A stretch of 64,000 nucleotides of DNA from Candidatus Nomurabacteria bacterium (GTDB taxonomy: Bacteria; Patescibacteriota; Minisyncoccia; Phycocordibacterales; UBA918), in assembly GCA_020632075.1 (NCBI GenBank), contig JACKGH010000001.1, forward strand, positions 387,216 through 451,215. The letters are read 5' to 3'. The notes under the pieces were generated by a model that ran no database searches, was not told the DNA's origin, and saw only the letters and a program-made list of their open reading frames with translations. Positions 701 through 64,000 of this stretch are shown one piece after another. Position 1 is the stretch's first letter, and each line of letters opens with the position of its first letter. The position numbers were made by a program, and so were the translations under genes.

Positions 701-723
701 GGCCGGCCCCGAAGGGGCCGGCC
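701..723. terminator. GC-rich hairpin GGCCGGCCCC-GAA-GGGGCCGGCC (member of recurring hairpin family); terminator of gene 763..1464
   Basis: Perfect 10-bp stem, 3-nt loop, directly after stop of minus-strand gene; T-rich tract adjacent on minus strand. Confidence 0.6.
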
Positions 724-762
724 ACAACAAAAAACCAGGTCAAATGACCTGGTTGCATACCA

Positions 763-1464
763 TTACTCCTCTAGTGGAGTGAAGATGAGAGACTCTCGAA
801 ACGGATCATGACTCTTTTTTCTCGCGCGGATGAGCTGTTCTTCAGCCAGTTTATCTGGGTCAACCTCCATCCAGACCGAATCGTCGGCCACCACCCAGCG
901 CCACCACCAATCTGCGTAAAATGGCGTACTTACGCACCATGAAGCGAACTCTTGCCGCAAGCGTTGCCGCTGATCAGAAGGCATGTCGAGGTCCAAACCA
1001 TACATTTCAGCAGCGCGCAAACGCACCACTTCACCGAATTGTCCATCTTTGAAGATAAAGATCTTCTTGATATCAGAATCAGCATTCTCCGGCAGTAAGT
1101 TGGCCCGCATAATATGCATCAGGCCACTTCGTAACAACTGATCGAAGAGTCGTCTGATCCTTCTGAACGGATGACAATGAGCCTTGAATACCGATTCGTT
1201 GTACCGCAACGTTGGCACACCGTCTTCATCCACAGCTGCTTCAATCTCACCTATATCAATGGCGTGTGCGATCGCGACATCACTCATACCAAATACAGTG
1301 ACCAGCACACCCACTTGGTGTTCTGCTAGGATCCTTTGTCGATCTTGAAATTCCCGATCAATCAGATCCGCTTCAGGACCATACATCTCTGTCAGCAAAG
1401 CATCACTAGGAAACTGTGCTGCATATTTTTCGGACAATGATGGACGATCGCAAATATCGTGCAT
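763..1464 (-). CDS. hypothetical protein (233 aa), tandem paralog of 1..634
   Basis: ORF track 763..1512; probable ATG start at 1464 preceded by GGAGGT SD; acidic Trp-rich protein, no recognisable family. Confidence 0.55.
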   Translation of the reverse strand: MHDICDRPSLSEKYAAQFPSDALLTEMYGPEADLIDREFQDRQRILAEHQVGVLVTVFGMSDVAIAHAIDIGEIEAAVDEDGVPTLRYNESVFKAHCHPFRRIRRLFDQLLRSGLMHIMRANLLPENADSDIKKIFIFKDGQFGEVVRLRAAEMYGLDLDMPSDQRQRLRQEFASWCVSTPFYADWWWRWVVADDSVWMEVDPDKLAEEQLIRARKKSHDPFRESLIFTPLEE

Positions 1465-1497
1465 CTTAGTAACCTCCGCCTTTGTACACCTTTGTGT

Positions 1498-1527
1498 ACT
1501 ATAGCGAGACAAATTTGATTTGCAAGA
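1498..1527 (-). promoter_or_regulatory. putative promoter TTGCAA-N16-TATAGT for gene 763..1464
   Basis: Minus-strand cTTGCAAatcaaatttgtctcgcTATAGTac upstream of SD; homologous to promoter at 667..695. Confidence 0.4.
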
Positions 1528-1530
1528 AAA

Positions 1531-1554
1531 CGGCCGGCCCCGAAGGGGCCGGCA
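1531..1554. repeat. second exact copy of GGCCGGCCCCGAAGGGGCCGGC hairpin
   Basis: Identical 22/23-mer to 701..723, located about 68 nt upstream of gene start exactly as the first copy is upstream of gene 1..634. Confidence 0.6.
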
Positions 1555-1810
1555 GATCTTGGCAAAGACAATGTACTACTGATGTAAAAAGAATAGTATG
1601 TGAGCGTTTGACCAGTTCCAGGAATCTCCAAGAAACAACGAAACAGCATTCCTTTGCAGCTCGCTGCAGTCATATTCTCCCTAGGCAGGTCGAATCTGAC
1701 TAAGCGCCTGCATACTTTCGCCACCAGGGCACTTCCATTTTTATGGTCGCTATCACTCCCTAAAAATTTGGTCGCACATAGTCGCGCTTACGCACTCCTT
1801 TGTTCAAGCA

Positions 1811-3497: not shown

Positions 3498-3875
3498 TTA
3501 CTTCCTTGGCAAAGAAAGCGTAAAACCATACATCCCATCGATGGTCGATCGATAGGTGGTTTGCCATTCCTTCGCGTGAAAAATGTCGTGCGCCGACACC
3601 GCCACCTTATTCAACACTTCTTCCACTGCATCTGACTGGACCACGACCTTGCCGACGGATTCTCCTTCCTCCGCCGAAAGATCTGCATAGTACAGCACCT
3701 CGATCAAGACCTTTCCTTCTCCTTCAGCGAAACGCAAAAGAAACGTGTACTCGTCACGAATTCGCTCGCACATGAAAGCATGTGCCGCACGGCACACTTC
3801 TCGCGCCACCGATCCGATAACCCTTTGATGCCCGATCTTAACGGTTTCCACCGACAGATCCAATTCGTTTGCCAT
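3498..3875 (-). CDS. hypothetical protein (125 aa)
   Basis: ORF track; perfect AAGGAGG SD upstream of ATG; no family recognised. Confidence 0.55.
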   Translation of the reverse strand: MANELDLSVETVKIGHQRVIGSVAREVCRAAHAFMCERIRDEYTFLLRFAEGEGKVLIEVLYYADLSAEEGESVGKVVVQSDAVEEVLNKVAVSAHDIFHAKEWQTTYRSTIDGMYGFTLSLPRK

Positions 3876-3947
3876 GACTCCTCCTTATTAGGTAGTCTTG
3901 AAACACAAAATTCTATTCGGTACTATTTGTATCATAAATTTGTATTT

Positions 3948-3991
3948 TGTCAATGTGCGTATCGATGCATCTATCATAGCATATATGCTAT
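3948..3991 (+). promoter_or_regulatory. putative murA promoter (TTGTCA ... TATCAT) overlapped by 16-bp perfect palindrome ATAGCATATATGCTAT (3976..3991), candidate operator
   Basis: Palindrome read directly; lies between -10-like hexamer and ATG at 4003 of the HTH-MurA fusion gene. Confidence 0.4.
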
Positions 3992-4002
3992 ATTGATTAC
4001 CT

Positions 4003-5502
4003 ATGCAACACATTGGAACCCGCATCGCCGACGTCCGCGAGACCCTCGGCCTCACGCAGACAGACTTAGCCAAAAAGATCAAAACCACCCAGAGTGCGAT
4101 CGCTCGCATAGAAGCCGGCAGACAAAATGTCAGTGCTGATATGCTGAAGCGCATCAGCAAGGCTCTCGGGAAAAATCTCATCACCCTCTCCCCTGGTACC
4201 GTCAATGTACGGATCGGTGGTGGCAAAAAACTCACCGGCACCATTGAGACCAACACGTCAAAAAACGGTGCAGTCGGCCTCCTGTGTGCATCACTCCTCA
4301 ATAAAGGCACCACCACCCTTCACCGCATGCCACGCATCGAAGAGGTACACCGCATTATCGAGGTACTCGAGAGCATTGGTGTAAAAGTGGAATGGAAAGG
4401 CACTACCGTAACGATCACTCCGCCAAAAAAGTTTGAACTACAAAAGATCGACAAGGTTGCCGCCATGCGTACTCGCAGTATCGTGATGTTCATCGGCCCA
4501 CTCATGCATCACCTGAAGTCATTTTCGCTGCCACAGTCTGGCGGTTGTAAGCTTGGCAGCCGTACGGTGAAGCCGCATTTCTTTGCACTAGAACACTTCG
4601 GAGTGGATATTAAAGCGACTGAGGATTCGTTTGTTGTGAAGACTGTGCCACGGCCGGCCGGCGAGATCATTCTGTATGAATCTGGTGACACCGTGACCGA
4701 AAACGCACTCTTTGCAGCCGCCGGCCGGCCGGAGACCACCATCATCAAGTACGCCACTGCCAACTACATGGTGCAGGAAGTCTGCAACTTCCTGTGTCAG
4801 CTTGGAGTGAAGATCGAAGGCTATGGCACTACCACCTTGAAAGTAACTGGGGTTAAAGATATTGATCAGGATGTCGAATACACTCTATCTGAAGACCCGA
4901 CCGACAGTATGTTCTTCCTAGCTGCCGCGATCGTGACCAATTCCAGCATTACCATTACTCGTTGTCCGATCGAATTCCTTGAACTTGAGCTGCTCAAGCT
5001 TGAGAAGATGGGCTTTAAGTGTAAAAAGTCTAAGCCGTACCTGAGCCATAATGGCGCCACCAAGCTGGTCGATATCACCACCAAACCATCGAAGCTCGTG
5101 GCACTTCATGAAAAGATCCATCCGGCAGTGTACCCAGGACTCAACATGGACAATCTCCCCTTCTTTGCCGTGATTGCTACCCAAGCCGCTGGACAAACAC
5201 TCATTCATGACTGGGTGTACGAAAAGCGTGCAATCTACTTCACTGAGCTTGATAAACTTGGCGCCGATACCGTCCTCGCTGATCCACACCGCATCTTTAT
5301 CACCGGCCCGACCAAGCTACGCGCCACTGAGCTAGTGTGTCCACCTGCCCTTCGTCCAGCCACTATCTTACTCATTGCTATGCTTGGCGCTGAAGGAGAA
5401 TCGGTGCTGCGCAACATCTACAGCATCAACCGTGGCTATGAGAAATTGGTAGAACGACTCGCGAGCTTAGGTGCAGACATTTCGTATTTGGATGAGTTTT
5501 AA
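4003..5502 (+). CDS. murA: UDP-N-acetylglucosamine 1-carboxyvinyltransferase (MurA) with N-terminal XRE-family helix-turn-helix domain fused in frame (499 aa)
   Basis: Residues about 60-499 align with MurA throughout (KNGAVGLLCASLL, active-site loop LPQSGGCKLGSRTVKPH with Cys, C-terminal NRGYEKLVERLASLGADI); residues about 8-60 LGLTQTDLAKKIKTTQSAIARIEAGRQNVSADMLKRISKALG are a canonical Cro/C1-type HTH; single uninterrupted ORF. Confidence 0.85.
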   Translation: MQHIGTRIADVRETLGLTQTDLAKKIKTTQSAIARIEAGRQNVSADMLKRISKALGKNLITLSPGTVNVRIGGGKKLTGTIETNTSKNGAVGLLCASLLNKGTTTLHRMPRIEEVHRIIEVLESIGVKVEWKGTTVTITPPKKFELQKIDKVAAMRTRSIVMFIGPLMHHLKSFSLPQSGGCKLGSRTVKPHFFALEHFGVDIKATEDSFVVKTVPRPAGEIILYESGDTVTENALFAAAGRPETTIIKYATANYMVQEVCNFLCQLGVKIEGYGTTTLKVTGVKDIDQDVEYTLSEDPTDSMFFLAAAIVTNSSITITRCPIEFLELELLKLEKMGFKCKKSKPYLSHNGATKLVDITTKPSKLVALHEKIHPAVYPGLNMDNLPFFAVIATQAAGQTLIHDWVYEKRAIYFTELDKLGADTVLADPHRIFITGPTKLRATELVCPPALRPATILLIAMLGAEGESVLRNIYSINRGYEKLVERLASLGADISYLDEF

Positions 5503-5557
5503 ATGAGTCACAGAGCCGTAAGGCGACAATGACGAATTTATGCAGGCGCTTGGCCAC

Positions 5558-5585
5558 GATCCAGACCATTTCCTAGGTCTGGATC
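5558..5585. terminator. bidirectional terminator hairpin GATCCAGACC-N8-GGTCTGGATC between convergent murA and giant surface-protein gene
   Basis: Perfect 10-bp stem read directly; located in the 125-bp gap between convergent stops. Confidence 0.55.
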
Positions 5586-5627
5586 TGGTCGCAGCGAGCT
5601 GCAATAATATCTGAACCACCACGCACT

Positions 5628-8600
5628 TTATTCAAACTTAATATTCCCCCGCAGCAACAATTCCCCTTGCTGCTTGAACGACCCCTGTGCACGAGTCGCC
5701 GCTTCGGACATGATGATATACACTCGACCTTCATTTGAAGAATCGTCATATCCGTGTGCACCGATAACCAGATCATCAACCCCATCACCCGAAACGTCGC
5801 CAGCTGCGAGAGAAATACCAAAGTTACTATTTGTTGCTTCACCACTGATCTTCACACCGCTGTCGATTGCATCTGAGGTGTGTAAATTATCACCGTAAAA
5901 GAGGTAGACGTCTCCGGTAAAGGTGTCGCTGCGCCACGCACCCACTGCAAGATCGTCAACTCCGTCACGATCAAAGTCGCCAGTTGCAAGTGTTGTACCT
6001 AAGTTATCATCACTACTTGCCTCACCACTTAATATCACATCTGCAGACGATGCAGAGATCGATCCTGAGAGCGTCGCATTGTAGAAAACATACACTCGAC
6101 CACTAAATGAATCATATCGGTATGACCCAACCGCCAGATCGTCTTTGCCGTCGGCATTATAGTCACCCACTGTAAGAGCCCCACCAAAATACGCACTAGT
6201 ACCCACTCCCGTCATAATTACATCTGCCGTTGAAGCGTTTGCAGAACTCATCGAGCCGCCGTAGAAGACATAGGCGCGACCGGTATTGCTGTATACATAC
6301 GCCCCCACCACCAAGTCATCTATACCATCATTATCAAAATCACCTGTAGCCACCCTGTCTCCAAAGTAGTTACTCGTTCCTTCACCAGTGTATGTCACAT
6401 CTGCGCCGGTTGCGTTTTCATCGATCATTGAGCCGCCGTAGAAGACATAGGCGCGACCGGTATTACCACCGTTTGAATAACCATACGCACCAACTACGAG
6501 ATCATCGGTGCCGTCTGCATTGTAGTCACCTGTCGTAAGAGAATGTCCAAAGTAACCAAGTATCCCCTCACCGGTTAGCGTCACATCAGCATCACTCGCG
6601 TCACCGTCAGCTAAGCTGCCGCCATAGAAAATATAGGTGCGACCAGCACCACTTCCATACGAAGTAGCACTAACCACCAAGTCGTCAACTCCATCGTTGT
6701 TAAAGTCACCCTTAGTTAGGGCTGTTCCAAACGCCGTACCACTGTCGCCGGTCAGCGTTACATCTGCACTAGTCGTGGTTGTGGAATGTTTAACACCTCC
6801 ATAGAAGATGTAGGTGCGGCCTTGGTTTGAGTTGTATCCCGCAGCACTTACTGCCAAGTCATTTTTTCCATCATTATTAAAGTCTCCTACAACAACATCC
6901 TTACCGAGATCATCTTCAGACGCAGCACCGGTCACCTGCCAATCATTCGTCGTGTAGAAATACAACCGACCTTGGTTAGAATTATACAAATGTGCGCCTA
7001 TCACCAAATCGTCACCACCGTCGTTATTAATATCCCCTGCAGCCATGTAACGTCCGTAATACCCTGTCTCTCCGTCGAGAGTAACATCAGCACCAGAGGC
7101 GTTTTCAGTAATTATCGAACCACCGTAGAAGATGTAGGCACGGCCTTGGGAAGAGTTGTAGCCAACCGCACCGACTGCAAGATCCTCCATGCCGTCGTGA
7201 TTAAAATCACCCGAAATTAAATCAAGACTAAAACTGTTACTAGTCGCTTCACCGGTCAATGTCACATCAGCACCAGAGGCGTTTTCAGTAATTATCGAAC
7301 CACCGTAGAAGATGTAGGCACGGCCTTGGGAAGAGTTGTAGCCATGTGCACTAACTACCAAGTCATCACTCCCGTCTGAATTGAAATCACCCGAACTAAG
7401 TACAACACCTAGGTAACTATTTCCGGCTTCGCCGGTGATAATCGCATCCGCGCCCGATGCATTTTCAGAGATCATTGCACCACCGTAGAAGATGTAGGCA
7501 CGGCCCTCGTAACTGCCATATGTATTTGCCCCAACCGCGAGATCGTCTTCCCCGTCTGAATTGAAATCGCCAGTTGCTAGAGAGGTTCCAAAATTATTAG
7601 TGGTGGCTTGGCCAGTCAGTGTCACATCAGCACCAGAAGCGTTTTCAGTAATCATCGAACCACCATAGAAGATGTAGGCACGGCCAGTAGCAGAACTGTA
7701 GCTGTTAGCTGAAACGGCCAAGTCCTCTACACCGTCAGCATTAAAATCGCCAACGGCAAGTGCTGACCCAAAACTGTTACTCGCACCTTCACCAGTCAAT
7801 ACAACGTCAGCATCGGTTGCGTTTCCACTAGCTATACCACCTCCATAGAAGATATATGCCCGACCAACTGTACCACCATACAATGTCGCACCCACCACGA
7901 GATCATCTTTGCCATCATTGTTAAGGTCACCTATTTCCAAATTAACTCCAAAGTAGTTGGTAGCAGCTTCCCCCTCGATAATCACATCAGCTCGTCCGGC
8001 TTTGGTTTGATAACTCCCGTCGTTGTAGAAGATATACACTCTCCCAGCATTTGAATTGTAAGAGTAAGCCCCCACCACAAGATCATCCTTACCATCATTG
8101 TTAAGGTCACCGATCGCACTTGCTGCTGCAAAAAGATTTGAGGCACTTTCCCCCGTAATCTTCAGCTCATAGCCCATGATCGGATCAACCCGCAAGCCAT
8201 CAGATAGTGGCGAGCGCTGGATCTCCCAGGCGTAGTCCTCGCGGGTTTCGTAGAAATAGATGCGGCCGGTGTCGCCGCCATTGTTGTAGCCCGGAGCACC
8301 AATCACGAGGTCGTCTTTGCCGTCGGCGTTGAAGTCGCCAGTTATGAACGCGTGACCGAAGTCATCGTTGGTACTGTCTCCGGTGATGATGATGTCGGCG
8401 CTGGCGGCTGCAGTCGGGTACGAGCCGTCGTTGTAGAAGATGTAGGTGCGGCCTTGATAGGTATTGTATTGCCAGGCTCCTACCACGATATCTGTCTGAC
8501 CATCGTGATTGAGATCGCCGGCGGTCAACGCGGTACCAAAACTGCTTAAAGCTTCACCGGTCAAAGTCACATCTGCAGCGCTATCAGTAGTACTTGCCAG

Positions 8601-11848: not shown

Positions 11849-11888
11849 AGCTAGATTCAGGACTAGGACTAAAGTCCTGAATCTAGCT
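11849..11888. repeat. 40-nt perfect hairpin/palindrome AGCTAGATTCAGGACT-aggactaa-AGTCCTGAATCTAGCT in divergent promoter region
   Basis: 16-bp perfect inverted repeat read directly; between giant gene start and priA-like gene start. Confidence 0.6.
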
Positions 11889-14764: not shown

Positions 14765-15638
14765 GGAAATAAAATTCGCATACTTTGGAGGCGAACCGCT
14801 TGGAGTGCCTGCGCTCGAAGAGTTGGCCGCGGCCGGCCTCATGCCGAGCTTGGTAGTTTGCAACCCCGATCGACCGGCCGGCCGCGGCCACAAACTCACG
14901 CCGCCGCCCGTCAAAATCTGGGCAGAAGCACACAATATTCCTGTCTTCCAACCAGATAGCTACAAGGCAGAAGTAACACGCCAACGACTTGAGAGCGAGT
15001 CTTGGGATGCATTTGTCGTAGTGGCCTACAATTTTATTCTACCCGAATGGTTACTTGAGATGCCGAAGCATGGCGTTTTGAATGCCCACCCTTCCCTACT
15101 ACCAAAACTCCGTGGAGCAAGCCCGATTCGCACTGCAATCCTGAAAGACTTGCGCGATGAAGTAGGAGTGACCGTGATGTTACTTGATAAGGAGATGGAC
15201 CACGGGCCAATTCTCGACCAGATGGCAATGGATATTTCTGACGAGAATTGGCCCGTATCAGGCCCGGATCTCGACCTCGCGCTCGCCCGTATGGGCGGTT
15301 CACTACTGGCCGACGTGCTACCAGCCTGGATCACCGGCGAACTCGCTCCACAAGAACAAGATCACGGCGCCGCTACCTACTGCGGTCGCTTCAAAAAGGG
15401 CGAAAATGAGCTCACGATCGATCCACTCGATCTTCCTACTGGCCAAGCAGCCTTGGCTGCTTGGCACACGATCAATGCCTGGGCTGGTATTGGCGATACA
15501 TACTTCATGCACAACGACAAGCGAGTGAAGGTAAAGATGGCCGAACTGACTAATAACGGCACGCTGCAGTTACTTCGTGTAACACCCGAGGGTAAACGTG
15601 AGATTGATTTTGATGACTACCTGAAGAGTGTTTCATAA
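14757..15638 (+). CDS. fmt: methionyl-tRNA formyltransferase
   Basis: N-terminal formyltransferase fold, NAHPSLLPKLRGASPI motif, C-terminal domain; ATG overlaps def stop (ATGAATAA). Confidence 0.9.
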   Translation: MNKEIKFAYFGGEPLGVPALEELAAAGLMPSLVVCNPDRPAGRGHKLTPPPVKIWAEAHNIPVFQPDSYKAEVTRQRLESESWDAFVVVAYNFILPEWLLEMPKHGVLNAHPSLLPKLRGASPIRTAILKDLRDEVGVTVMLLDKEMDHGPILDQMAMDISDENWPVSGPDLDLALARMGGSLLADVLPAWITGELAPQEQDHGAATYCGRFKKGENELTIDPLDLPTGQAALAAWHTINAWAGIGDTYFMHNDKRVKVKMAELTNNGTLQLLRVTPEGKREIDFDDYLKSVS

Positions 15639-15639
15639 A

Positions 15640-15672
15640 AAAACGGGCGGCCCCGAAGGGGCCGCCCGTTTC
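15640..15672. terminator. bidirectional rho-independent terminator AAAAAAACGGGCGGCCCC-GAA-GGGGCCGCCCGTTTCTT (variant of GC hairpin family)
   Basis: 12-bp stem flanked by A-run and T-run; between convergent fmt and hpf. Confidence 0.75.
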
Positions 15673-17838: not shown

Positions 17839-17863
17839 GGCCGGCAAGCTATGCTTGCCGGCC
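17839..17863. terminator. GC hairpin GGCCGGCAAGC-TAT-GCTTGCCGGCC (hairpin family variant); terminator of gene 17875..19017
   Basis: 11-bp perfect stem; TTTTCGTA follows on minus strand just after the stop of the minus-strand gene. Confidence 0.6.
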
Positions 17864-32139: not shown

Positions 32140-32337
32140 ACCCGATCCGTCATTCTGTCATTAATTAAAAGGTATTATACAGATGTCTCTGCCTCTCCAA
32201 TACCTAAAATTCGCCCTGGCAACAAAAAGGAGAAATGGCAAATTACAGATACTGCATCAGACTGTTGCACTTTAAGACTGACGCCACCAGGATTTCATAC
32301 ACAAATAACTTTATAGGCTCAAATCCATCAAACAGAA

Positions 32338-32362
32338 AGTCCAAGCATTTCATGCTTGGACT
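32338..32362. terminator. hairpin AGTCCAAGCAT-TTC-ATGCTTGGACT flanked by AAA/TTT (bidirectional terminator-like)
   Basis: 11-bp perfect stem read directly. Confidence 0.5.
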
Positions 32363-32417
32363 TTCTGTTATAAAGCTCTCCTTGTGGGATGATGTTCGAA
32401 CTTTTTGTACAAATGAG

Positions 32418-32446
32418 AAGACCCCGCGTACGTGACGCGGGGTCTT
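32418..32446. terminator. hairpin AAGACCCCGCG-N7-CGCGGGGTCTT immediately 3' of minus-strand gene 32463..32822
   Basis: 11-bp perfect stem read directly. Confidence 0.5.
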
Positions 32447-32822: not shown

Positions 32823-32912
32823 TGTTTGTTTCCTCCACAGAAAACTAGTCAGTTCATTTCGGAAATACCCTACACAAAACAATACGCTATAAATAGCGTA
32901 TTGTCAATAGTG

Positions 32913-33234
32913 CTCCGCCGGTAGGATTCGAACCTACGACCAATCGGTTACATCTTGTCCGAAAATTTCTTAACGGGATGGACTATATCATCATCCTGAT
33001 CTGATAACCGTGGGATGTGAGGGGCTTCGAGCAACTTCCTGCCCTACTTCCTTTCGGAATAGTCTCTGAACCTTCCTTGGATTACTCCTTGGCTTGGCTG
33101 CTGATTGCCCGCGCACGCGCTAGGGGTTCCAGCAATTCACCTCATGTTTCCGTACCTCATTACTGAGGAAGGCTGCTATTTAGAACATTTGTTCAATGTT
33201 ACAGCCGACTGCTCTACCACTGAGCTACGGCGGA
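32913..33234 (-). tRNA. tRNA gene (most consistent with tRNA-Asn, anticodon GUU) interrupted by a 250-nt group I intron; exon 1 33201..33234, exon 2 32913..32950
   Basis: Minus-strand 5' half UCCGCCG-UA-GCUC-AGUGGUA-GAGC-A-GUCGG-CUGU and 3' half UAA-CCGAU-UGGUC-GUAGG-UUCGAAU-CCUAC-CGGCGGA-G fold into a canonical cloverleaf (7-bp acceptor, TΨCGAAU loop, 5-nt variable loop); U1-A72 plus G73 and CUGUUAA loop match bacterial tRNA-Asn. Confidence 0.7.
32951..33200 (-). ncRNA. group I (self-splicing-type) intron in anticodon loop of tRNA, between anticodon positions 35 and 36
   Basis: 5' exon ends in U, intron ends in G; internal guide GCAGCC (intron nt about 24-29) pairs with exon end GGCUGU including the G·U wobble; conserved core elements present: P AAUUGCUGGAA, Q AAUCAGCAGCC, R GUUCAGAGACUA, S AUAUAGUCC. 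Confidence 0.75.
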
Positions 33235-34435: not shown

Positions 34436-35299
34436 ATGCCAGAACTACCAGAAGTGGAAACCGTACGACTGCAATTACTGCGAAAAGTGGTCGGGAAAAC
34501 GATCGATTCGGTCGAGGTATTTCACAATAAGACGGTCAGTCATGATGTAGAGATCGAAGATCGATTGCGTGGAAAAACGATCGAACACATCGACCGGGTT
34601 GGCAAACTCATGATCTTCTCTTTTGTGAGCGAAGAAGATCTATTTCTTTTGGCGCACCTCAAGATGACTGGGCAGTTTTTTTATGTCGGGAAAGATGCGG
34701 CGGTGACGGGCGGCGGTCATTCCATGACCGCCGCCGATATGAACCTACCAATGAAGCACACTCGTGTTGCATTTCATTTCACCGATCACACCACTCTCTA
34801 CTTCAATGACATGCGTCTCTTTGGGTATACAAAAGTAGTCGACCGGGCGGAAATGGAACGAGCAAGAAACGGGTTTGGGCCGGAGCCGATCAGCGACGAT
34901 TTTGATTGTGCATGGTTCGCTGATCGGCTCCGGAGAAGAAAGACTTCAGTCAAAGCCGCGCTCCTTGATCAATCATTCATCGCAGGCCTCGGGAATATTT
35001 ATGTCGACGAAGCACTGTGGCGTGCGCAAGTACGACCGACCAGGCGAGCTGATAAGGTGACCAAGAAGGCTGCGGTCGCTCTCTGCCGCGCTGCCGGAGA
35101 CGTGATGAAAGAATCGATCGCCGTCGGCGGCACTACCTTCCAACACTTCAAAGACACTGGTGGCGAAAACGGCAATTTCACCGACTATCTCAAGGTTTTT
35201 GGTCAGCACGGCACCAAGTGCCCCCGCTGTGGAACCCTCATCAAAAAGATCCGCTGCGCCGGCCGCGGGACACACTATTGTCCAGGGTGTCAGAAGTAA
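34436..35299 (+). CDS. mutM: formamidopyrimidine-DNA glycosylase (Fpg/MutM, Fpg/Nei family)
   Basis: N-terminal MPELPEVE catalytic Pro2/Glu3, H2TH region, C-terminal zinc finger CPRCGTLIKKIRCAGRGTHYCPGCQ. Confidence 0.85.
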   Translation: MPELPEVETVRLQLLRKVVGKTIDSVEVFHNKTVSHDVEIEDRLRGKTIEHIDRVGKLMIFSFVSEEDLFLLAHLKMTGQFFYVGKDAAVTGGGHSMTAADMNLPMKHTRVAFHFTDHTTLYFNDMRLFGYTKVVDRAEMERARNGFGPEPISDDFDCAWFADRLRRRKTSVKAALLDQSFIAGLGNIYVDEALWRAQVRPTRRADKVTKKAAVALCRAAGDVMKESIAVGGTTFQHFKDTGGENGNFTDYLKVFGQHGTKCPRCGTLIKKIRCAGRGTHYCPGCQK

Positions 35300-39607: not shown

Positions 39608-39626
39608 GCCGGCCCAAGGGGCCGGC
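39608..39626. terminator. GC hairpin GCCGGCCC-AAG-GGGCCGGC (hairpin family variant) + T-run on minus strand; terminator of tailspike-like gene
   Basis: Read directly; TGTGTTTTTC follows on minus strand. Confidence 0.6.
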
Positions 39627-39669: not shown

Positions 39670-42600
39670 CTATTCGTTTGGAGGAGATTCGACTACTTCT
39701 TCTGGGTTTTCGTTTGCTGTTTCTTCCGCACTGACCTCGTCAGCTGGAAGAGGTTCGTTTGGTACTTCCTCCTCAATAACCTCCTCCTGCTCATCAGACA
39801 CAGCTTCGTCTTCAGAGTCTCCTGAAACCTCTTCGTCGTCTTCAATCACTTCATCTGTAGTGGTCGAAGTGTCTTCCAAAACCTCTTCCGTACCAGCAGC
39901 AGATGTCGTCGCAGTCTCTTCGTCTGTTGGAAGCACGCCAACTGGCTCAACCACCTTGTCTTCGTCATCTTCTTCAACTGGTTGTTGTTCAACTCCCAAC
40001 TCAGCTTCTACTTCAGCCAATCTCTCTTCAAGCTCGGCAATACGCTGCTGGTTGCCAGTCACAGTCTGCCAGATCTCTTGAATAGCAGTTACCACTGCCG
40101 CCAAGATCGGCCTCGTTGAAAGAGTTTTGTAGCCATCAGGATTTTCTCCCACTGCTTCTGGCAGGAAGTCTTCTATGTTTTGTGCCGAGAATCCAGCATA
40201 GATGGTGGTTTGATCATAGCCACTTTTTTCGTTCCAACTGTAACGAATTGGCCTGATACTGAGTATTTCGTCGAGCCCAGCTTCGTATGCCCCTAGAATA
40301 TTCTTAAGTCGTTCGTCGGAACTGACTGTCACATTACCGACTGCGTCAGTTTCAAGCGTACCGCCAACAATACCCGCAAAACGCACACCACTGGCTACAG
40401 TAAGCATAGCTGTTGGACTAGTGGTACCAATCCCAACATACCCGTTGGTATCGATAGTGAGACGCGAGGTGTTGTTGGTCTGGAAGCGTAACTGATGATT
40501 TGAGAAGGTGCCAAAGAAGCCTTGGAAGTCTTCCGCACGCATATCGAAGATCACGTCGTTGGTCGTATCACGGAAGCGAGCTCCGGCGCCGGCCGGCGCT
40601 ACGATATTCAAAAGTCGACTATCAGTACTGCTACCGATGTTGATCTGCCCATCGTAGATCAAGCCGCCGATCGTACTCGAAGCCACCCACTTGTTGTGAT
40701 AGAGCGGCGGCGGGGTTTCGGTCACACCATCCTCACCAACCTTCACGATCGATCCTTCTTCGATTATAAAATTATCATTACCACCATCGTCGCTGTACGC
40801 TTCGTTCATACCCCAAAGCTGCCCTTCGACTTTTACATATGACGCATTTGAGACACGCACGCCAGTCAATGGTGCAACTGGCGGATTGCTACTGTCGTCT
40901 TCACCAATAATCTGCGAAAGGCCGTTGATAAAGACAGGCGCAACTTGTGCGGTCGATGAACCAATGATCGCTACGCCGGCATATGGTGTCTCGGTACCAC
41001 CACTAGAGTTTGGTCCGTCACGGCGCGTAAGGAGGCCGTTGAAGGTTACGGTAGTTGTACCCGTCAGTGAGATACGTACGCCATGACGGTCGTTGCGGTC
41101 GGTTGAGAAGTCAGTGAACATCATACCGCCGTTGCTTGACGATCCGTCGATGTAGAGACCAGTGAGTCCATTGAATACAGCACGTGAGTTGTTGATCTTG
41201 GTTTCACCCATCGAAGAGAGGTAGATTCCTCGAAGCGCATTACCAACTGCCAAGAGATCCTCAATGTATGAGTCGTTGAGTGCAGTGGCTCGAAAGCCGT
41301 GACCATCGGCACTATAAATAGAAAGACCACGGATAGTGAACCCGCGAGGGTTACCACTACCCGTACCAACTGCCGCTTCAAAACCATTACCGGTCACCTG
41401 CGAAATATCGACGTCAGTCAGTTTCCAATCGCGCACCAAACCTTCAAAATAGACACCGTCCACATCAACGCTGGCCGAACCACCATCGAGACTGAGGTAC
41501 TCGAGTCGACCACCGTTGTTGTGGTTAGTTTCGCCTGAGATAGTGCGGTCGCGCACATGGATCAATGCTGCACCCGAGAAGGTCCCAAAGTCAGCCCGGA
41601 TCGAGCTGCGTGGTGTCGAGCTATACGACCAACGCGGTGAGTACGCACCACGAAGCGTGACTGGCGTATCGAGTACGATCGGACTTGAAATACGATACTC
41701 GCCCATTGGGAAATAGACAGTACCACCTTCGCCACACGCGGCGATCGCTGACGCGATCGCCGCGTCATTGATCGTACTATTGTCACCCACCGCACCATAC
41801 GCCTCCACGTTACACACCTGCCCACCCGTATCGACGAGTCGTGCAGTGGTCGTACCAGCCGAAAGCGTACCTGCGACAGTGAGTGTTTCACTCGGGGTAC
41901 TGGTGCCAATACCAACATTGCCTGTAAGCCGAAAGACGTCACCACTGACAGCAGACCAGTTGGCGGTTGATGAACCAGCCAAGACAACTCCACCCCAGTA
42001 CAGATCACCACCAAAATTGTAGAGGCGATTCACAACATTACTCGGTGACACTTCAGCCAAGTACAGCGCACCTGCCAAAGACAGTGAATCAGCCGGGCTG
42101 CTGGTACCAATACCAAGACGACCAGTCACGTATGAGGTACCCGAGAGGATCGCATCAGCCAGCGTCGGTGTAGTGAGTTCTGCCTGTACAAAAATATCCT
42201 GTTGCACAGCATCGACTCGCTCATAGATACGATCGACTGATTTGAGGACATAATCTCTTGTCGAAAGTGAGCTCGTCGCTTGCACTCCGTCAGCAGTCGC
42301 AATCGCTGCACTGTGTGGTAAAGAATTAATGTATTGCAACACCTCTGTGATGCGTTGATTCAGCAATGATTCTGAAACGCCCGACTGCTGGATCGTTACG
42401 TACTCGTTGGTGATCGTCTCATAAGTGACTGGGTACGTACTTGTCGCAAGCTCTGGATCTTTTTGTGTCACTGATTCACCAAGCACTACTGGATCTGGGT
42501 TTGGTTCATCGAGATGCTGGATCGGCGTAGCTACCGCTACTGATTGTGCACATCCTCCAAAGGGGCGCACCATCCATCCAAACCAGTCACAGAAAAATCC

Positions 42601-45574: not shown

Positions 45575-46447
45575 ATGCAAAAAGAATTCGAAGCCCTCGG
45601 CACAAAATGGTGGATCACTATTTTTGATGAGACTTCAACAGAAACCCTCGAGGCGGCCTTCGGCCGCCTCGAGGGTTTTACGCGCGCGTATGAAGCAAAA
45701 TACTCTCGCTTTAAGCCAGATTCGCTCATTTCCACCCTCAACCGTGAGCGGGTATTGGAGCAGCCAGATCAGGACTGCCGCGCGCTTCTGACGTACGGCA
45801 AGTCACTCTATCTGCGCACCAACACGCACTTCAACCTCCTCACCGGCCACATCCTCGAAGCGCGCGGCTACAACGCCACCTACACATTTGAATCGCACGA
45901 ACCGGAAAAAGAAACACCAGGCAACCCAATCACCGACCTACTTATTTCAGAAGAAAAAATCGAACTGCTCCACGGCAACGTCGACATCGGTGGTTTTGGT
46001 AAAGGCTACCTGATCGACGAGCTCGCAAAGATCCTGCGTGAAGAATTTTCACTGCAGTACTTTTTGATCAATGGTGGTGGTGATATGTACGCTTCAAGCG
46101 AACAAGAAAAGCCGATCGAGATCTATCTTGAACACCCAACCAAGGCACGTCATTTCATCCATCGCACTACTCTCCTCAATCAAGGCTTCGCGGCCTCAAG
46201 TCCTTTTAAGCGTGTCTGGCAAAGCCATGACCAGACCTACACGCACATCGTGACCAATGAAGCCGCACCGCGGGTTGCGTCGTTCATCAAAGCAGGGACA
46301 GCGCGCGACGCTGATGCGTTTGCAACCACCGCGCTCATGCTGTCTGAAACTGAGCTTGCCACACTCTCCCAAACAGAAAACTTCAGCGTCGCGCGCTTTA
46401 CCCCCGCCACCAACCAACTCTGGCAAACCAACTCCTTCAATACTTGA
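45575..46447 (+). CDS. apbE: FAD:protein FMN transferase (ApbE family)
   Basis: DIGGFGKGYLIDE (ApbE DxGGxxKGY motif), overall about 290 aa ApbE pattern; directly downstream of its putative substrates. Confidence 0.8.
   Translation: MQKEFEALGTKWWITIFDETSTETLEAAFGRLEGFTRAYEAKYSRFKPDSLISTLNRERVLEQPDQDCRALLTYGKSLYLRTNTHFNLLTGHILEARGYNATYTFESHEPEKETPGNPITDLLISEEKIELLHGNVDIGGFGKGYLIDELAKILREEFSLQYFLINGGGDMYASSEQEKPIEIYLEHPTKARHFIHRTTLLNQGFAASSPFKRVWQSHDQTYTHIVTNEAAPRVASFIKAGTARDADAFATTALMLSETELATLSQTENFSVARFTPATNQLWQTNSFNT
45642..45678. repeat. 37-nt perfect hairpin AAACCCTCGAGGCGGCC-TTC-GGCCGCCTCGAGGGTTT embedded in apbE coding sequence (codons about 23-35)
   Basis: 17-bp perfect inverted repeat read directly; encodes ETLEAAFGRLEGF; resembles the intergenic GC hairpin family. 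Confidence 0.7.
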
Positions 46448-50729: not shown

Positions 50730-50752
50730 GGCCGGCGCCGAAGGCGCCGGCC
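50730..50752. repeat. GC hairpin GGCCGGCGCC-GAA-GGCGCCGGCC inside the ATPase operon between atpF and atpA (hairpin family member)
   Basis: 10-bp perfect stem read directly; no T-run on minus strand. Confidence 0.6.
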
Positions 50753-58574: not shown

Positions 58575-59474
58575 ATGCAAAAGTACATCGTACTAGAAAA
58601 GAAAGTTGGAGAAACACCGCTCTCTTGTGCTGAGAAGTGGCGGGCGACTGCGTCGCCCGCCTTCAAAGATGTCCCTTTGACATACGCCGGACGTCTTGAC
58701 CCGATGGCATCAGGAAAGCTTCTAGTGCTCATTGGTGAGGAGTGTAAAAACCAAGAGCAGTACCATGGGCTCGATAAAGAGTATGAGTTTTCGGTACTAC
58801 TTGGTATCACGTCTGATACGCATGATGTGTTAGGTAGATTATCTGTGACTCCTCAAAAAACAGATGTACCAGTGCCTACTGAGGTTGTCAGACTTGGCTT
58901 AGCGGCCCGGAGCGCAACCGAAGGAGGCACTGGTACATCTGTTTTCACCAAAGAAAATCTAACGATGCTTACAAGAAACCTCGTCGGACAAATTTCACTC
59001 CCCTACCCACTTTTTTCTTCAAAAACAGTTAAAGGAAAACCGCTCCACACCTGGACTCTTGAAGGTCGACTTGACGAGATTGAAATTCCAACCAATGAAT
59101 CTACGATCTACGAACTTGAACTCATTAAGATCGAGGCGAAACATCGTACGGACGTCGCGCGCGAAGCGCGCGACAAAATAGATACTATTCCCCCAGTAAC
59201 CGACCTTCGTAAAGCACTTGGAAATGATTTCCGTCGAGTGGATGTGCGTAAGGACTGGGCCGAAATTGCCTCCGGCAATTTCGGCCCGGCCCCCCTCCCT
59301 GACACCTACACCATCGCACACTTTCGTTGCGTCGCTTCTTCTGGTACCTACATGCGCTCCCTCGCCCACCTCATCGGCCAAAAACTCGGTGCCTGTGGAC
59401 TGGCCTGGCACATTCACCGCACCGTCATCGGCACCTACAACCAAACCAACAAGGATTGGAGTCACACTTTTTAA
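58575..59474 (+). CDS. truB: tRNA pseudouridine(55) synthase TruB
   Basis: YAGRLDPMASGKLLVLIGEE catalytic-Asp motif, LDKEYEF; true start ATG 58575 (track ORF starts far upstream at 58095 with non-protein-like residues). Confidence 0.85.
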   Translation: MQKYIVLEKKVGETPLSCAEKWRATASPAFKDVPLTYAGRLDPMASGKLLVLIGEECKNQEQYHGLDKEYEFSVLLGITSDTHDVLGRLSVTPQKTDVPVPTEVVRLGLAARSATEGGTGTSVFTKENLTMLTRNLVGQISLPYPLFSSKTVKGKPLHTWTLEGRLDEIEIPTNESTIYELELIKIEAKHRTDVAREARDKIDTIPPVTDLRKALGNDFRRVDVRKDWAEIASGNFGPAPLPDTYTIAHFRCVASSGTYMRSLAHLIGQKLGACGLAWHIHRTVIGTYNQTNKDWSHTF

Positions 59475-59477
59475 ATA

Positions 59478-61454
59478 TTACTTCTGTTCGTTGATCGCTT
59501 CGACGCGATCCAGGTATGCTCGCACCGCGAGCACAAACTCTGCATGACTCCATACTAGAGGCGAGGTAGACAGCTGTTGTCTCGTATCAGGATGCATCTG
59601 CTCAGCTAAGAGACCGCCATGGTTTGCATGAGAAGCCGTCCACTGCAACAACTCAAGTGGATACTTCAAGTCCTTTAGTTTCTCAGCCTTTTCAATGTAG
59701 TATCGTGCCACCCACAGTGTAGTGATCACCCACGGATTAGGGCTACCAGCATCTTGTTGTTGATAGTACGCATCACCTTCGTACCGCACAAAGCCTTCGC
59801 TATTGCCTTTCACCTGCAGATTAGCCAAGACCGCTTTGCACATCCGTTCCATCTTTTCATCTTCGCTATCAAATACACGGAAGAGTTGGAGTCCGTACAA
59901 ACTACTCGTATCGAGTGTACGATCAAACTCCAAGTCACCATCAGAGGTGTGCAGCACATGCTTCATAAACACACCCTTCTGCTCATCAAACAGCACATCT
60001 CCGATCGCTCGCTGCATGCGCTGTGCAACTGCCTGATAGGTACGAGATGCTTCGTCCTTTCCAAGCGTATTTGCAAACTTTGCTGCTGCCATGAGGCCGC
60101 CATATACTGAAGCGGCGGTGTACGTAGAAGTACCGTACTTCTCTTCCCACAGATCAAATGAAGCTTGCGGCAATCCCGTCAGCGACTCAATATACTCACA
60201 CATAAACTCAGCAGCCGGCTCGATGAACTTGTTGTACATCGATTCAATAAATTCAACATCATGATAGCGCTCATAGTGCTCCCACAGCATAAAGACGACT
60301 GTTGCGGTCTCATCTTCTTGGATAGGTAATCTTGGTTCACCATTGATGATCCAAGGATGCCACGAACTACCAAGGGCGCCATCACTCCGATACTTGTGCA
60401 TTAAGTATCCACTTGGATCGAGACGTTCAGCAATGAATTCAAAGAACCGTCGAGAGACATCTCGATACCCTGCCACGTCAAAGGCGTGTGCGATCACTGC
60501 TGCATCCCGTGGCCAGACATAGCTGTATGTGTCACGACCATGATGCAACATATCGGTATCGCTTGATGCGATAATCCCACCTCGATTGTCGGTATGTACC
60601 CGCATAACAAGCAACGACCGTCGGTACAGTGTCTGAAGTTCGGCTGACAAGAGTGATAGATCGGTCTGTTCCTTTTCAAGCCACGCATGCCAGTAGGCTT
60701 CAGTCGAAGCGATCAGACGCTCTGGTTCTTCGGTCAGTACATGCTCATCAAGCATATGTACCTCTGCAATCGATTTACCAAATACGACCCAGTAGTACGC
60801 ATCATTTGAGGACTGTCCTGCTATCTGAAAACTAAGCCCCAGTACTGAATCAACCGAACCGTGCTCGATCGGATTACACTCCAAAACACCATCTACCGCA
60901 TCAAGATACGTCCCCTCCCTTCCTTCGATACCAAACAATCCAATGTTGTACTCTTGGAACTGTTGTTTACCACTCATCGCGTTTACCAAGATCGTCGTAT
61001 CACCCTTGTAGTGAATGATCGCATTTACACGTGGATCGTAGAAACCAGTGTCACCTCGTTGCGATTCAAATATACGAAATTGCTGCGAAAGAAAAAGCTT
61101 TACCATTCGAGTTTCACTGCGGTGGTTGTGAACGGTAAAATGTCGCAAAAAGATGTTCTGTTCATTATGTACCGCATCTCGACTAGAGATCGAAATGCCT
61201 AATTCAAGATTCTCCGCAAACAGAGAACCAATACAAGTACCCTCTTCTGATCCAACACTAACCTTCCAACCTGGATCATCCAACCAAGAAATATGACCAT
61301 CAACAAACACACCAATGCGATGCACGTAATTCCCACTAGCACCACTCACGTGATTTGCTTCCCCAACAAATGGGTAGTACAGATCACGAACTTGCCCGCG
61401 ACCATCAAGGCCGACCAAGAGGTTGCCGTTTCCAATTGTGACCGCTCGTGCCAT
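59478..61454 (-). CDS. glycoside hydrolase family 15 (glucoamylase/glucodextranase-like) with N-terminal beta-sandwich domain
   Basis: N-terminal IGNGNLLVGLDGRGQVRDLYYPFVGEANHV typical of COG3387 GH15 proteins; (alpha/alpha)6 region with conserved W/E residues. Confidence 0.75.
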   Translation of the reverse strand: MARAVTIGNGNLLVGLDGRGQVRDLYYPFVGEANHVSGASGNYVHRIGVFVDGHISWLDDPGWKVSVGSEEGTCIGSLFAENLELGISISSRDAVHNEQNIFLRHFTVHNHRSETRMVKLFLSQQFRIFESQRGDTGFYDPRVNAIIHYKGDTTILVNAMSGKQQFQEYNIGLFGIEGREGTYLDAVDGVLECNPIEHGSVDSVLGLSFQIAGQSSNDAYYWVVFGKSIAEVHMLDEHVLTEEPERLIASTEAYWHAWLEKEQTDLSLLSAELQTLYRRSLLVMRVHTDNRGGIIASSDTDMLHHGRDTYSYVWPRDAAVIAHAFDVAGYRDVSRRFFEFIAERLDPSGYLMHKYRSDGALGSSWHPWIINGEPRLPIQEDETATVVFMLWEHYERYHDVEFIESMYNKFIEPAAEFMCEYIESLTGLPQASFDLWEEKYGTSTYTAASVYGGLMAAAKFANTLGKDEASRTYQAVAQRMQRAIGDVLFDEQKGVFMKHVLHTSDGDLEFDRTLDTSSLYGLQLFRVFDSEDEKMERMCKAVLANLQVKGNSEGFVRYEGDAYYQQQDAGSPNPWVITTLWVARYYIEKAEKLKDLKYPLELLQWTASHANHGGLLAEQMHPDTRQQLSTSPLVWSHAEFVLAVRAYLDRVEAINEQK

Positions 61455-61458
61455 GAAC

Positions 61459-61845
61459 TTACACTGCGTAGTACTTAAGATGCTTCACCACGACAGTCTT
61501 TGCAGACTTTGGCGTCTTTGCTTTTGCTAGATCAGCAGCACACACATTGTCACACAGCACTTGCTCAACCCAGTTTGCAAAATCATTGCTGTCTCCACCG
61601 GTGTGATACACGTAAACTTCCTTCTCCATCTCTTCGAGTGCATCCTTGAGTGCTACAAGACTATTGAGGACCTGACCATTCTTTACCCAAAATGATTTGG
61701 TGTTACTCGCATACACGAGTGGCTTCTTAGTACCAGTCTTTACTGCAGCTTTTTTTGCAGGTGCCTTCTTCACCGCTTTCTTGACCACCTTCTTAGCAGC
61801 TGCTTTTTTTGCAGGTGCTGTTTTAGTCGTTTTTTTTGTTGGCAT
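61459..61845 (-). CDS. histone H1-like Lys/Ala-rich DNA-binding protein (putative)
   Basis: N-terminal about 45 aa of KKAAAKK/AKKA repeats followed by a globular about 80-aa domain. Confidence 0.45.
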   Translation of the reverse strand: MPTKKTTKTAPAKKAAAKKVVKKAVKKAPAKKAAVKTGTKKPLVYASNTKSFWVKNGQVLNSLVALKDALEEMEKEVYVYHTGGDSNDFANWVEQVLCDNVCAADLAKAKTPKSAKTVVVKHLKYYAV

Positions 61846-61852
61846 ACTTCGT

Positions 61853-63259
61853 TTAAGAACTTACTTGTCCCCGCTTGGGGCTTCTAAAGAACGGTAATGA
61901 GTCCAGGATCTTTTGCCACCACCGCTTCAGTGCTGACAATGGTTCTGGCTCAACAACAGGAGCTTCAACAACCTTATCTACATCGGTTGGTGTAGCATCA
62001 TCCTCCTTTGTAATTGCTTCGTCGACCGCTTGTTTGGCAGCCTCCTTAGCATCACGTTCAGCCACCGCATGGCTTACCCTTAATTGTAAATCACTCAGCG
62101 CATTCATAAAGGCGATATACGCATCATATGGGGATTGGTACGGAGAGAAGTACGCATGTACATCTCCATCCTGTGACCACTTGGTACACATGTAATAGAA
62201 GTGATCTGACGTCTGTAACTTACGCCAGGTCTCGATCAGGCTGCGCTTGCGCGTCTTCATGACATCAGACTCCATACCATACGTCGCAGCGATCGCGTCA
62301 CGCTGAATATCATTACCAACCCACGCAGTCAGGTCGCGGTCGGTATCTGCCCACGTGAGCACATCTGGCACATCATACTCGCCCGCTGGATCATAGCTTT
62401 CGACTGTTTCAGTCGCGGTCTTGAAAGTAGTATCTGGGTGACGCAGCACCATCTCTGGCATTGCGCGCAAGAAATCGAAGATACCAGTATCTTCCCACTG
62501 ATGTTCACCAAAGCTCTCGTAGTCCATGAAAAGATTCACCGTCTGCCCATCACCATGGTGCGCATGAATCCAGTTAGCATACGTGTCCGCAGACAACGGC
62601 CAACTTGCCCACTGCTTATTCCCGAATCGAAATGCAATGTCATCAGAGAGTTTGTAGTTTTTAAGAAGGACCTTGATCTTAGAACAGCCAGCTGGTCGGT
62701 ACAGATAGTTCGGGCTACGCCACCCAAGATACTTATCCCAACCTTCAGCCATGATGCCAAGATAGTCATTGTCTTCACACCACTTAGCGAGATCGTTACG
62801 GTATGAAAGTTCAGTATTACGAAACACTCGTGGTCGCACTCCAAAGAGTTGCTTCACACGTCGTTCATGCTGCTTCACTTGTCGCTCAAACTCCGGCACA
62901 GAGTAGAAGAACGCGAGTGAGTGATGATAGGTGTCAGCCAAGATCTCGACTCGACCAGTTGCGACCAACTCCTGGAAAGACTCGAGCACATCCGGCGCGT
63001 ATTCTTCAAATTGATCAAGGACCGTACCCGAAAACGAAAGATTGAAACGGAACTCTGGATGTCGATCCAAGAGTTCTTTGAGTACACGGTTGGTTGGACG
63101 ATACGACTTCTCGGCTACCTTTTCAACAATGAAACGGTTATCGAGATCAGTGCCACTGGTGTCATTGAAATATTCAGTGTCATTTCCGATATCAAACACT
63201 CGATACCGCTTTACACGGTATGGCTGATGAACATGAAAGTAAGGACAAACTGAAAGCAT
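61853..63259 (-). CDS. glycoside hydrolase family 57 (alpha-glucan-active enzyme)
   Basis: N-terminal FHVHQPYR signature (GH57 region I), ...GRVEILADTYHHS..., overall about 470 aa; ATG 63259 (track 63331 start lies inside upstream GT4 gene). Confidence 0.75.
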   Translation of the reverse strand: MLSVCPYFHVHQPYRVKRYRVFDIGNDTEYFNDTSGTDLDNRFIVEKVAEKSYRPTNRVLKELLDRHPEFRFNLSFSGTVLDQFEEYAPDVLESFQELVATGRVEILADTYHHSLAFFYSVPEFERQVKQHERRVKQLFGVRPRVFRNTELSYRNDLAKWCEDNDYLGIMAEGWDKYLGWRSPNYLYRPAGCSKIKVLLKNYKLSDDIAFRFGNKQWASWPLSADTYANWIHAHHGDGQTVNLFMDYESFGEHQWEDTGIFDFLRAMPEMVLRHPDTTFKTATETVESYDPAGEYDVPDVLTWADTDRDLTAWVGNDIQRDAIAATYGMESDVMKTRKRSLIETWRKLQTSDHFYYMCTKWSQDGDVHAYFSPYQSPYDAYIAFMNALSDLQLRVSHAVAERDAKEAAKQAVDEAITKEDDATPTDVDKVVEAPVVEPEPLSALKRWWQKILDSLPFFRSPKRGQVSS

Positions 63260-63264
63260 ATGCA

Positions 63265-64000
63265 CTATGGTGTAACGTATTGTACCAGACTTCGATAGAT
63301 CTGTTTGATCTTTTCCGCCGCATGCTTCCATGAAATGTTAAGCATCTGCCACTTTCCTTCTTTGACGATCTGCTGACTCATCACCGGATAGCGCAATGCA
63401 GCTAAGATCTGATTAGCCATTTCGTCTACATCCCAAAAATCTACCTTGAGTGCATGCGAGAGTACTTCTGCTACACCAGACTGTTTCGTGATGACTGAAG
63501 GTGTACCGTGCTGAAGCGCCTCAAGTGGCACAAGACCGAACGGTTCTGAAACTGATGGCATCACGATGAGATCGGCACTTTGGTACATGCGGTCACGATC
63601 TTCGTACCAAAGTGCTCCAGCGAACAGTACGTTCTGGGACAATCCCAGTGAACCAACCATCTCAATGATCTGCCTGGTCATGTCTCCAGAACCGGAGATG
63701 ACAAAGACTACATTTGGATCGACATCTACCACACGTCTAGCGGCTCGAATGAAGTGGTCAACACCCTTCTGGATCGTGATACGTCCGTGATACAACACGA
63801 TCTTCTTGCCTTGCCGCTTGAGTTCGGTCAAAGTCGGTTCATGTCGCAATGGCTCGTGAGTATCACAACCATTATGCACTACCTCAACTCGATCTGCTGA
63901 TGCACCATGCTTGGTGACAATGATGTTCTTCGTAAAGTTGCTGACGGTCACGATCTTATCAGCCATAGCAAATGCCTCACGCTCGATCTTGTAGATCGAT
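63265..64000 (-). CDS. glycosyltransferase family 4 (GT-B, glycogen/alpha-glucan synthase-like), 3' part; gene continues beyond window end
   Basis: Frame stays open upstream of the track ATG at 63966 to the window edge (...SIYKIEREAFAMADKIV); C-terminal GT4 motifs EPFGLVPLEALQHGTP (E-x7-E). Confidence 0.75.
   Translation of the reverse strand, partial: SIYKIEREAFAMADKIVTVSNFTKNIIVTKHGASADRVEVVHNGCDTHEPLRHEPTLTELKRQGKKIVLYHGRITIQKGVDHFIRAARRVVDVDPNVVFVISGSGDMTRQIIEMVGSLGLSQNVLFAGALWYEDRDRMYQSADLIVMPSVSEPFGLVPLEALQHGTPSVITKQSGVAEVLSHALKVDFWDVDEMANQILAALRYPVMSQQIVKEGKWQMLNISWKHAAEKIKQIYRSLVQYVTP

Follow-up and report, generated by a model that had tools for sequence, protein, structure and literature searches.

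A stereotyped G/C-only hairpin at gene 3′ ends in Patescibacteria, probably an intrinsic terminator

The window analysed here is a 64,000-nucleotide stretch of contig JACKGH010000001.1 from a Candidatus Nomurabacteria bacterium. At its left end the genes lie on the minus strand, and transcription meets in turn a hairpin, a promoter and a gene. Downstream of mreB (stop at 1811), a 257-nt spacer leads to a hairpin (1554–1532), which is followed by CGTTTTC, a promoter-like TTGCAA-N16-TATAGT element (1525–1498) and gene 2 (1464–766 on the minus strand, 233 aa, with a TAA stop at 765–763). Next come the canonical terminator of gene 2 (754–733, minus strand), consisting of AACCAGGTCATTTGACCTGGTT and TTTTGTTGT with its T-run, and, directly downstream of it in the transcript, a further hairpin (723–701). 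This hairpin is followed by GGTTCC and by a second TTGCAA-N16-TATAGT element (694–667), which begins 6 nt past the hairpin and precedes gene 1. The latter starts at 633 and runs off the window at position 1; its full length of 236 aa is found in the Logan contig L002, which reaches further left. The conserved promoter that the preliminary description had placed before both genes was thus recovered at both positions.

The spacer between the mreB stop codon and the hairpin (1555–1810, minus strand) contains no ORF, and an Rfam search returned no family over this spacer or over the hairpins. It folds modestly better than its shuffled versions (z = −2.7, hairpin included). This stretch may represent a long 3′ UTR, or else a small RNA with the hairpin at its end.

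The 23-mer GGCCGGCCCCGAAGGGGCCGGCC has an exact match at 701–723, where the minus strand forms a 10-bp G/C-only stem closed by a cUUCGg loop and followed by GGTTCCTTGC, without a U-tract. The copy at 1532–1554 had been taken for a second exact occurrence; it matches at 22 of 23 positions, the sole mismatch being the last base of the plus strand, A for C. Its perfect stem is 9 bp long (1533–1553), and it is followed on the minus strand by CGTTTTCTTG, in which the U-tract extends into the −35 box. On the minus strand of these left-end genes, the loop and its closing pair read C(UUCG)G, a classic hyperstable RNA tetraloop.

Four variants announced elsewhere in the window are real, as all six sites were picked up by a scan for perfect hairpins. 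The first (15641–15671, described earlier from 15643) is a 14-bp perfect stem that can be read in both directions, AAACGGGCGGCCCC-GAA-GGGGCCGCCCGTTT, built around the core GGGCGGCCCC-GAA-GGGGCCGCCC. The second (17839–17863, minus strand) has an 11-bp stem, GGCCGGCAAGC-ATA-GCTTGCCGGCC, and a TTTTCG tail; it has only the outer GGCCGGC/GCCGGCC in common with the 23-mer. The third (39608–39626, minus strand) has an 8-bp stem, GCCGGCCC-CTT-GGGCCGGC, with AAG as the plus-strand loop, and the tail TGTGTTTTTC. The fourth (50730–50752, minus strand) has a 10-bp stem, GGCCGGCGCC-TTC-GGCGCCGGCC, with GAA as the plus-strand loop and a U-tract on neither strand. Two of these sites are two-mismatch variants of the 23-mer (15645–15667 and 50730–50752).

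The stems are perfect in all variants, with 8 to 14 bp across the six copies, since departures from the 23-mer are paired across both arms. The predicted RNA folds have energies of −24 to −33 kcal/mol and z-scores of −4 to −6, with the exception of the weaker hairpin at 39608 (z = −1.7). Shuffled sequence had been named earlier as the standard of comparison: no match to the 23-mer occurred in any of 100 dinucleotide shuffles. The heptamer GGCCGGC and its complement occur 31 times in the window (5.1 ± 2.6 in shuffles). Roughly half of these occurrences belong to hairpins, and the remainder are intragenic and encode Pro-Ala-Gly-type peptides.

The proteins encoded by genes 1 and 2 were correctly recognized as weak paralogs, with 28% identity (E = 4e-19). 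They are orphans: no Pfam domain was found in either, and a word-based search for homologs returned the protein itself only. A profile search of 1.84 billion representative proteins retrieved 18 remote relatives, also without Pfam domain. The two upstream regions were aligned, as had been proposed. The spacing from hairpin to ATG, given previously as 67–68 nt, is indeed identical in both units, at 67 nt without a gap. Within this length the hairpins agree at 22 of 23 positions, the −35 blocks G-TT-CTTGCAAA at 12 of 14 and the −10 blocks GCTATAGT at 8 of 8, and the rest is 25–45% identical. That the hairpin, the −35 block and GCTATAGT alone are conserved, at identical spacing, supports an old duplicated unit. 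At the left end, one gene's terminator directly adjoins the next gene's sigma70-like promoter (TTGCAA-16-TATAGT) in a compact junction. It is plausible that this junction was duplicated long ago together with its gene, the functional blocks alone being kept.

The tandem duplication of a whole cassette that had been suggested accounts for the two paralogous units and leaves out a third. In L002, gene 1 is followed by an ordinary terminator and then by an imperfect hairpin, GGCCGGCCGCGAAGCGGCCTGCC (L002 1699–1721), a TATAGT box and a non-paralogous gene encoding a 922-aa DUF8128/DUF87 ATPase. The presence of this unit before an unrelated gene indicates that the hairpin–promoter junction is a general intergenic layout, beyond duplication alone. 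In the third unit (L002 1699–1790) the TATAGT box is just 5 nt ahead of the ATG, which suggests that the ATPase gene has a leaderless mRNA. Within the window, five TTGCAA-N15-18-TAnnnT sites were counted; four are intergenic and correctly oriented, and three follow hairpins of the family.

All six hairpins lie between ORFs at gene ends, as initially described. In the orientation of the upstream gene they follow the stop codon by 5–45 nt, except the copy at 1532–1554, 257 nt after mreB. A U-rich tail is present at four of the six: 1532–1554, 15641–15671 (on both strands), 17839–17863 and 39608–39626. The hairpin at 15641–15671, flanked by an A-tract and a T-tract on opposite sides, is located between a convergent fmt-like gene (plus strand) and hpf (minus strand). 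The one at 17839–17863 stands 12 nt after a stop codon and is followed by TTGCAA-N16-TATGGT (17824–17797). That at 39608–39626 is 44 nt past the stop of a gene encoding a 1006-aa beta-helix/Peptidase_S74 protein and 38 nt before the next ATG; no promoter is visible in these 38 nt, so that a terminator at this place would have to be leaky.

Four hairpins with U-tracts at such distances from stop codons point to canonical, partly bidirectional intrinsic terminators. We therefore regard the hairpins as ordinary Rho-independent terminators with a probability of roughly 0.75, termination itself being deduced from structure and position. Transcription of the G/C-only palindrome by RNA polymerase would yield a hairpin of 8–14 bp, capped by a cUUCGg tetraloop on the gene strand and a GAA triloop on the opposite strand, and the U-tract behind it would allow release of the transcript. 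Where A- and T-tracts flank both sides, as at 15641–15671, termination could serve both convergent genes. The claim of terminator-type elements at gene ends is supported by structure, by position and by these U-tracts. It does not describe every copy, since 701–723 and 50730–50752 lack a U-tract.

These two copies have distinct settings. The hairpin at 701–723 sits behind the separate complete terminator at 733–754. The hairpin at 50730–50752 is inside a V/A-ATPase operon, 5 nt past the atpF stop and 54 nt ahead of the atpA start. The same junction was compared in four relatives. In three of them a strong hairpin of unrelated sequence, also without a U-tract, comes right after atpF; the fourth (L106) is hairpin-less, and the window spacer corresponds to an L106-type spacer plus 38 nt that hold the hairpin. 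As hairpins of unrelated sequence occur in three of four relatives, the atpF–atpA slot seems, from this comparison, to call for a stable structure rather than for a given sequence. The most likely role of both copies would be that of a stable 3′ structure protecting the upstream mRNA or dampening read-through, and not that of a full terminator. The copy at 701–723 may be a retained piece of the duplicated junction that now works as a back-up or an insulator.

The hairpin had been described as genome-specific. A search for the 21-mer GCCGGCCCCTTCGGGGCCGGC in 185,579 species, each represented by a single genome, gave 102 matches in 99 stretches. Of these matches, 69 are in 23 other Patescibacteria genomes, and the source species is not among the genomes matched. 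The core was found in Kaiserbacteria, Nomurabacteria, Minisyncoccia, Paceibacteria, Parcubacteria, Saccharibacteria and Elulimicrobium, in genomes of about 41–52% G+C, with a maximum of 11 exact cores per genome (Minisyncoccia D2.bin.5 and Kaiserbacteria HKST-UBA39). Most of the other 33 matches are isolated ones in high-GC taxa such as Actinomycetota and Gemmatimonadota, and 18 of the 33 are inside ORFs. By a rough, uncomputed estimate, Patescibacteria contribute about 1% of the bases of the scanned genome collection; if so, the enrichment of the core in this group is very large. A single exact match was found in viral contigs. A metagenome scan for GGGGCCGGCC-N4-10-CTTGCAA gave at least 120 matches, mostly in high-GC contigs, with no full hairpin among those listed.

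The cores of these Candidate Phyla Radiation (CPR) genomes are nearly always extended by site-specific palindromic A/T sequence, such as AAAAG...CTTTT, AAACG...CGTTT or AAATG...CATTT, resulting in perfect stems of up to 21 bp, and the flanks further out are unrelated. The 57 sites that could be classified by crude ORF calls are all at gene 3′ ends: the neighbouring genes are convergent at 32 of them and tandem at 25, and no site has divergent neighbours. A distance of 7–30 nt usually separates the stop codon from the core. Read in the direction of the upstream gene, 15 sites have a UUCG loop and 10 a GAA loop, so a tetraloop on the sense strand is not required. These 69 cores in 23 genomes refute genome specificity, and their location at 3′ ends wherever it could be classified strongly supports the terminator reading. 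The GGCCGGC(C/G)CC arm is a house style of many Patescibacteria rather than a private element. Among the loci fetched, the closest relative of the window comes from Patescibacteria bacterium UBA3466, which carries the exact core 4 times; window positions 59749–63999 are 71% identical at the DNA level, over 4.3 kb, to positions 3686–7990 of this locus (L044).

The same CPR loci contain 32 other G/C-core hairpins, of which 15 are within one mismatch of GGCCGGCCCC, compared with 6.4% expected for random G/C arms. The exact variant of position 50730, GGCCGGCGCC-TTC-GGCGCCGGCC, is one of these hairpins, in Minisyncoccia. The preference for one G/C arm (the 9-bp form GCCGGCCCC and its neighbours) is real, and either copying or selection may be the cause. 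A thermodynamic optimum as the sole cause was rejected: with a UUCG loop, the arm ranks 56th of the 1024 G/C-only 10-mers, and all 1024 arms fall within about 4 kcal/mol, from −24.6 to −28.7 kcal/mol.

The palindromes also coincide with discontinuities in assemblies. Gene 2 and atpF are present on contigs of the metagenome-assembled genome GCA_020428695.1 as well. Its contig JAGQMK010000019.1 is identical to the window through atpF, the hairpin and AGA, and then continues with a DUF5671 gene instead of atpA, the divergence starting 3 nt past the hairpin (L110 10357–10382 against window 50730–50752). One Logan contig keeps atpA after the hairpin at 50730, and another begins exactly at the hairpin, at position 1533. 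The switch in JAGQMK010000019.1, probably a chimera joined at a repeated palindrome, points to further identical copies of the 50730-type hairpin elsewhere in the genome and, together with the contig starting at 1533, to palindromes breaking or chimerising short-read assemblies.

Perfect hairpins are abundant in the window beyond this family. There are 20 with a stem of at least 10 bp, against 0.5 in shuffles, and at least 6 of the 20 are inside Pfam-supported genes. Such palindromes are found at 45642–45678 (apbE), 34709–34735 (fpg), 41736–41765, 15442–15465 (fmt), 58639–58661 and 59257–59287 (truB). The palindrome in apbE has 17 bp and a TTC loop and encodes TLEAAFGRLEGF; a length comparison by hand with E. 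coli ApbE revealed no insertion. This abundance suggests some process or selection that perfects palindromes in the genome. A group I intron (RF00028, 65.3 bits, E = 2.6e-14) was detected at 32959–33210 on the minus strand, with long perfect palindromes nearby at 32331–32369 (18 bp), 32418–32446 and 32879–32904; no tRNA was detected in the whole window. A 16-bp perfect palindrome at 11849–11888, AGCTAGATTCAGGACT...AGTCCTGAATCTAGCT, is a candidate operator, lying in the divergent region between a gene encoding a 2060-aa FG-GAP repeat protein and a gene starting at 11961. The tetramer GATC is the most over-represented in the window, with 580 occurrences against 247 expected from base composition, and CGATCG occurs 65 times against 15 expected.

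It was considered whether the hairpins could descend from a small dispersed palindromic element, one that insertion, gene conversion or recombination at the palindrome carries to new sites and that was co-opted as a terminator like REP/BIME or Correia elements. The recurrence of the 21–23-nt core in many unrelated places, across 23 Patescibacteria genomes, would fit, as would the clustering of the other G/C hairpins of those loci around this core (15 of 32), the 38-nt insertion relative to L106 and the additional genomic copy implied by the locus switch 3 nt past the 50730-type hairpin. However, conservation stops at the G/C core, each site having A/T flanks of its own length and sequence; neither target-site duplications nor a terminal motif such as GTAG were found; exact copies do not exceed 11 per genome; and about 40 window ORFs scanned with Pfam include no transposase. 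Every copy is at a gene 3′ end, as selection for termination predicts. The genome also has many intragenic perfect palindromes, the one in apbE being no insertion relative to E. coli ApbE by the length comparison. We find this origin unlikely. In a related form, the GGCCGGC(C/G)CC hairpin would be a "portable terminator" of about 23–38 nt, multiplied inside Patescibacteria genomes and passed from one to another through a copying process, for example insertion, palindrome-templated strand switching or palindrome recombination. The same process would also explain the large excess of perfect palindromes, intragenic ones included; this too is doubtful.

The left-end palindrome might instead be a DNA site, just upstream of the −35 box, at which a dimeric regulator acts as repressor or activator. 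Its conservation between old paralogs at a fixed 6–7 nt from the −35 box would then make sense, as would the fact that the copy at 701–723 is unneeded for termination, being preceded by a separate terminator. This is very improbable, as in many genomes the core is downstream of unrelated genes, often convergent, with no adjoining promoter; transcription-factor sites do not typically consist of 10-bp G/C-only arms around a 3-nt spacer; and the variants preserve base pairing without a fixed half-site. It is barely credible that terminators have recruited the arm from a DNA uptake signal comparable to the Neisseria DUS or the Pasteurellaceae USS: inverted pairs of such signals are known to form terminator hairpins (PMC1852404) and some Patescibacteria are described as naturally competent (PMC10187176), but in 506 kb of CPR loci 72 occurrences of the 9-mer arm are hairpin pairs and just 6 are solitary, within the window it occurs only in hairpins and never in coding sequence, and there are tens of copies per genome instead of the at least 1,000 typical of USS (PMC1852404).

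Read as an intrinsic terminator, the motif offers a marker of the ends of transcription units in Kaiserbacteria and other mid-GC Patescibacteria, where transcript maps are absent. It accounts for breaks and mis-joins of short-read assemblies at palindromes in these genomes. For genetic tools in CPR bacteria, it provides compact natural terminators that can be used along with the TTGCAA-16-TATAGT promoter. It also raises a small but testable question, namely why, out of hundreds of G/C arms that are nearly equally stable, a single one is shared by, or has been reached convergently in, reduced genomes from several CPR classes. In the searchable literature, no description was found of this hairpin sequence or of terminators in CPR/Patescibacteria.

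Several known systems are comparable. The loop on the gene strand at the left end is that of cUUCGg tetraloop hairpins. As in DUS and USS, one short sequence recurs in many terminator stems (PMC1852404). Those signals number at least 1,000 per genome, are mostly single and are often in coding DNA (PMC1852404), whereas the present arm is almost never single. Its likeness to REP elements is one of location: both are short palindromes outside genes, placed at gene 3′ ends and in some cases within operons, where REPs stabilise the upstream mRNA; the copy between atpF and atpA resembles such intra-operon REPs. In Enterobacteria and Pseudomonas, REP/BIME elements are imperfect palindromes with a GT(A/G)G head, are mobilised by RAYTs and occur by the hundreds, frequently in clusters whose members alternate in orientation. 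The present palindromes are perfect and in single copies without clusters, the sequence outside the G/C core is different at each of the 102 sites, no GT(A/G)G or GTAG-type head was found and a Pfam scan of roughly 40 ORFs of the window showed no RAYT (Y1 transposase) gene. The REP-like character proposed in the preliminary description is therefore not supported. Nor do the hairpins resemble MITEs or Correia elements, which have terminal inverted repeats around a conserved body and target-site duplications: just the 21–23-nt core is common to the sites and no duplications are visible. The closest match is to intrinsic terminators of the d'Aubenton-Carafa type, as modelled by TransTermHP (PMC1852404), which likewise have a G/C-rich perfect stem, a loop of 3–4 nt and a 3′ U-tract, with a 5′ A-tract if bidirectional, and are located a few to tens of nt past stop codons between tandem or convergent genes. 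The hairpins differ from usual intrinsic terminators in that two window copies have no U-tract and in that the stem is unusually stereotyped, with one G/C-only arm and its one-mismatch neighbours recurring both inside single Patescibacteria genomes and across them. The element type itself is ordinary; the mildly new point is this stereotyped G/C core common to Patescibacteria.
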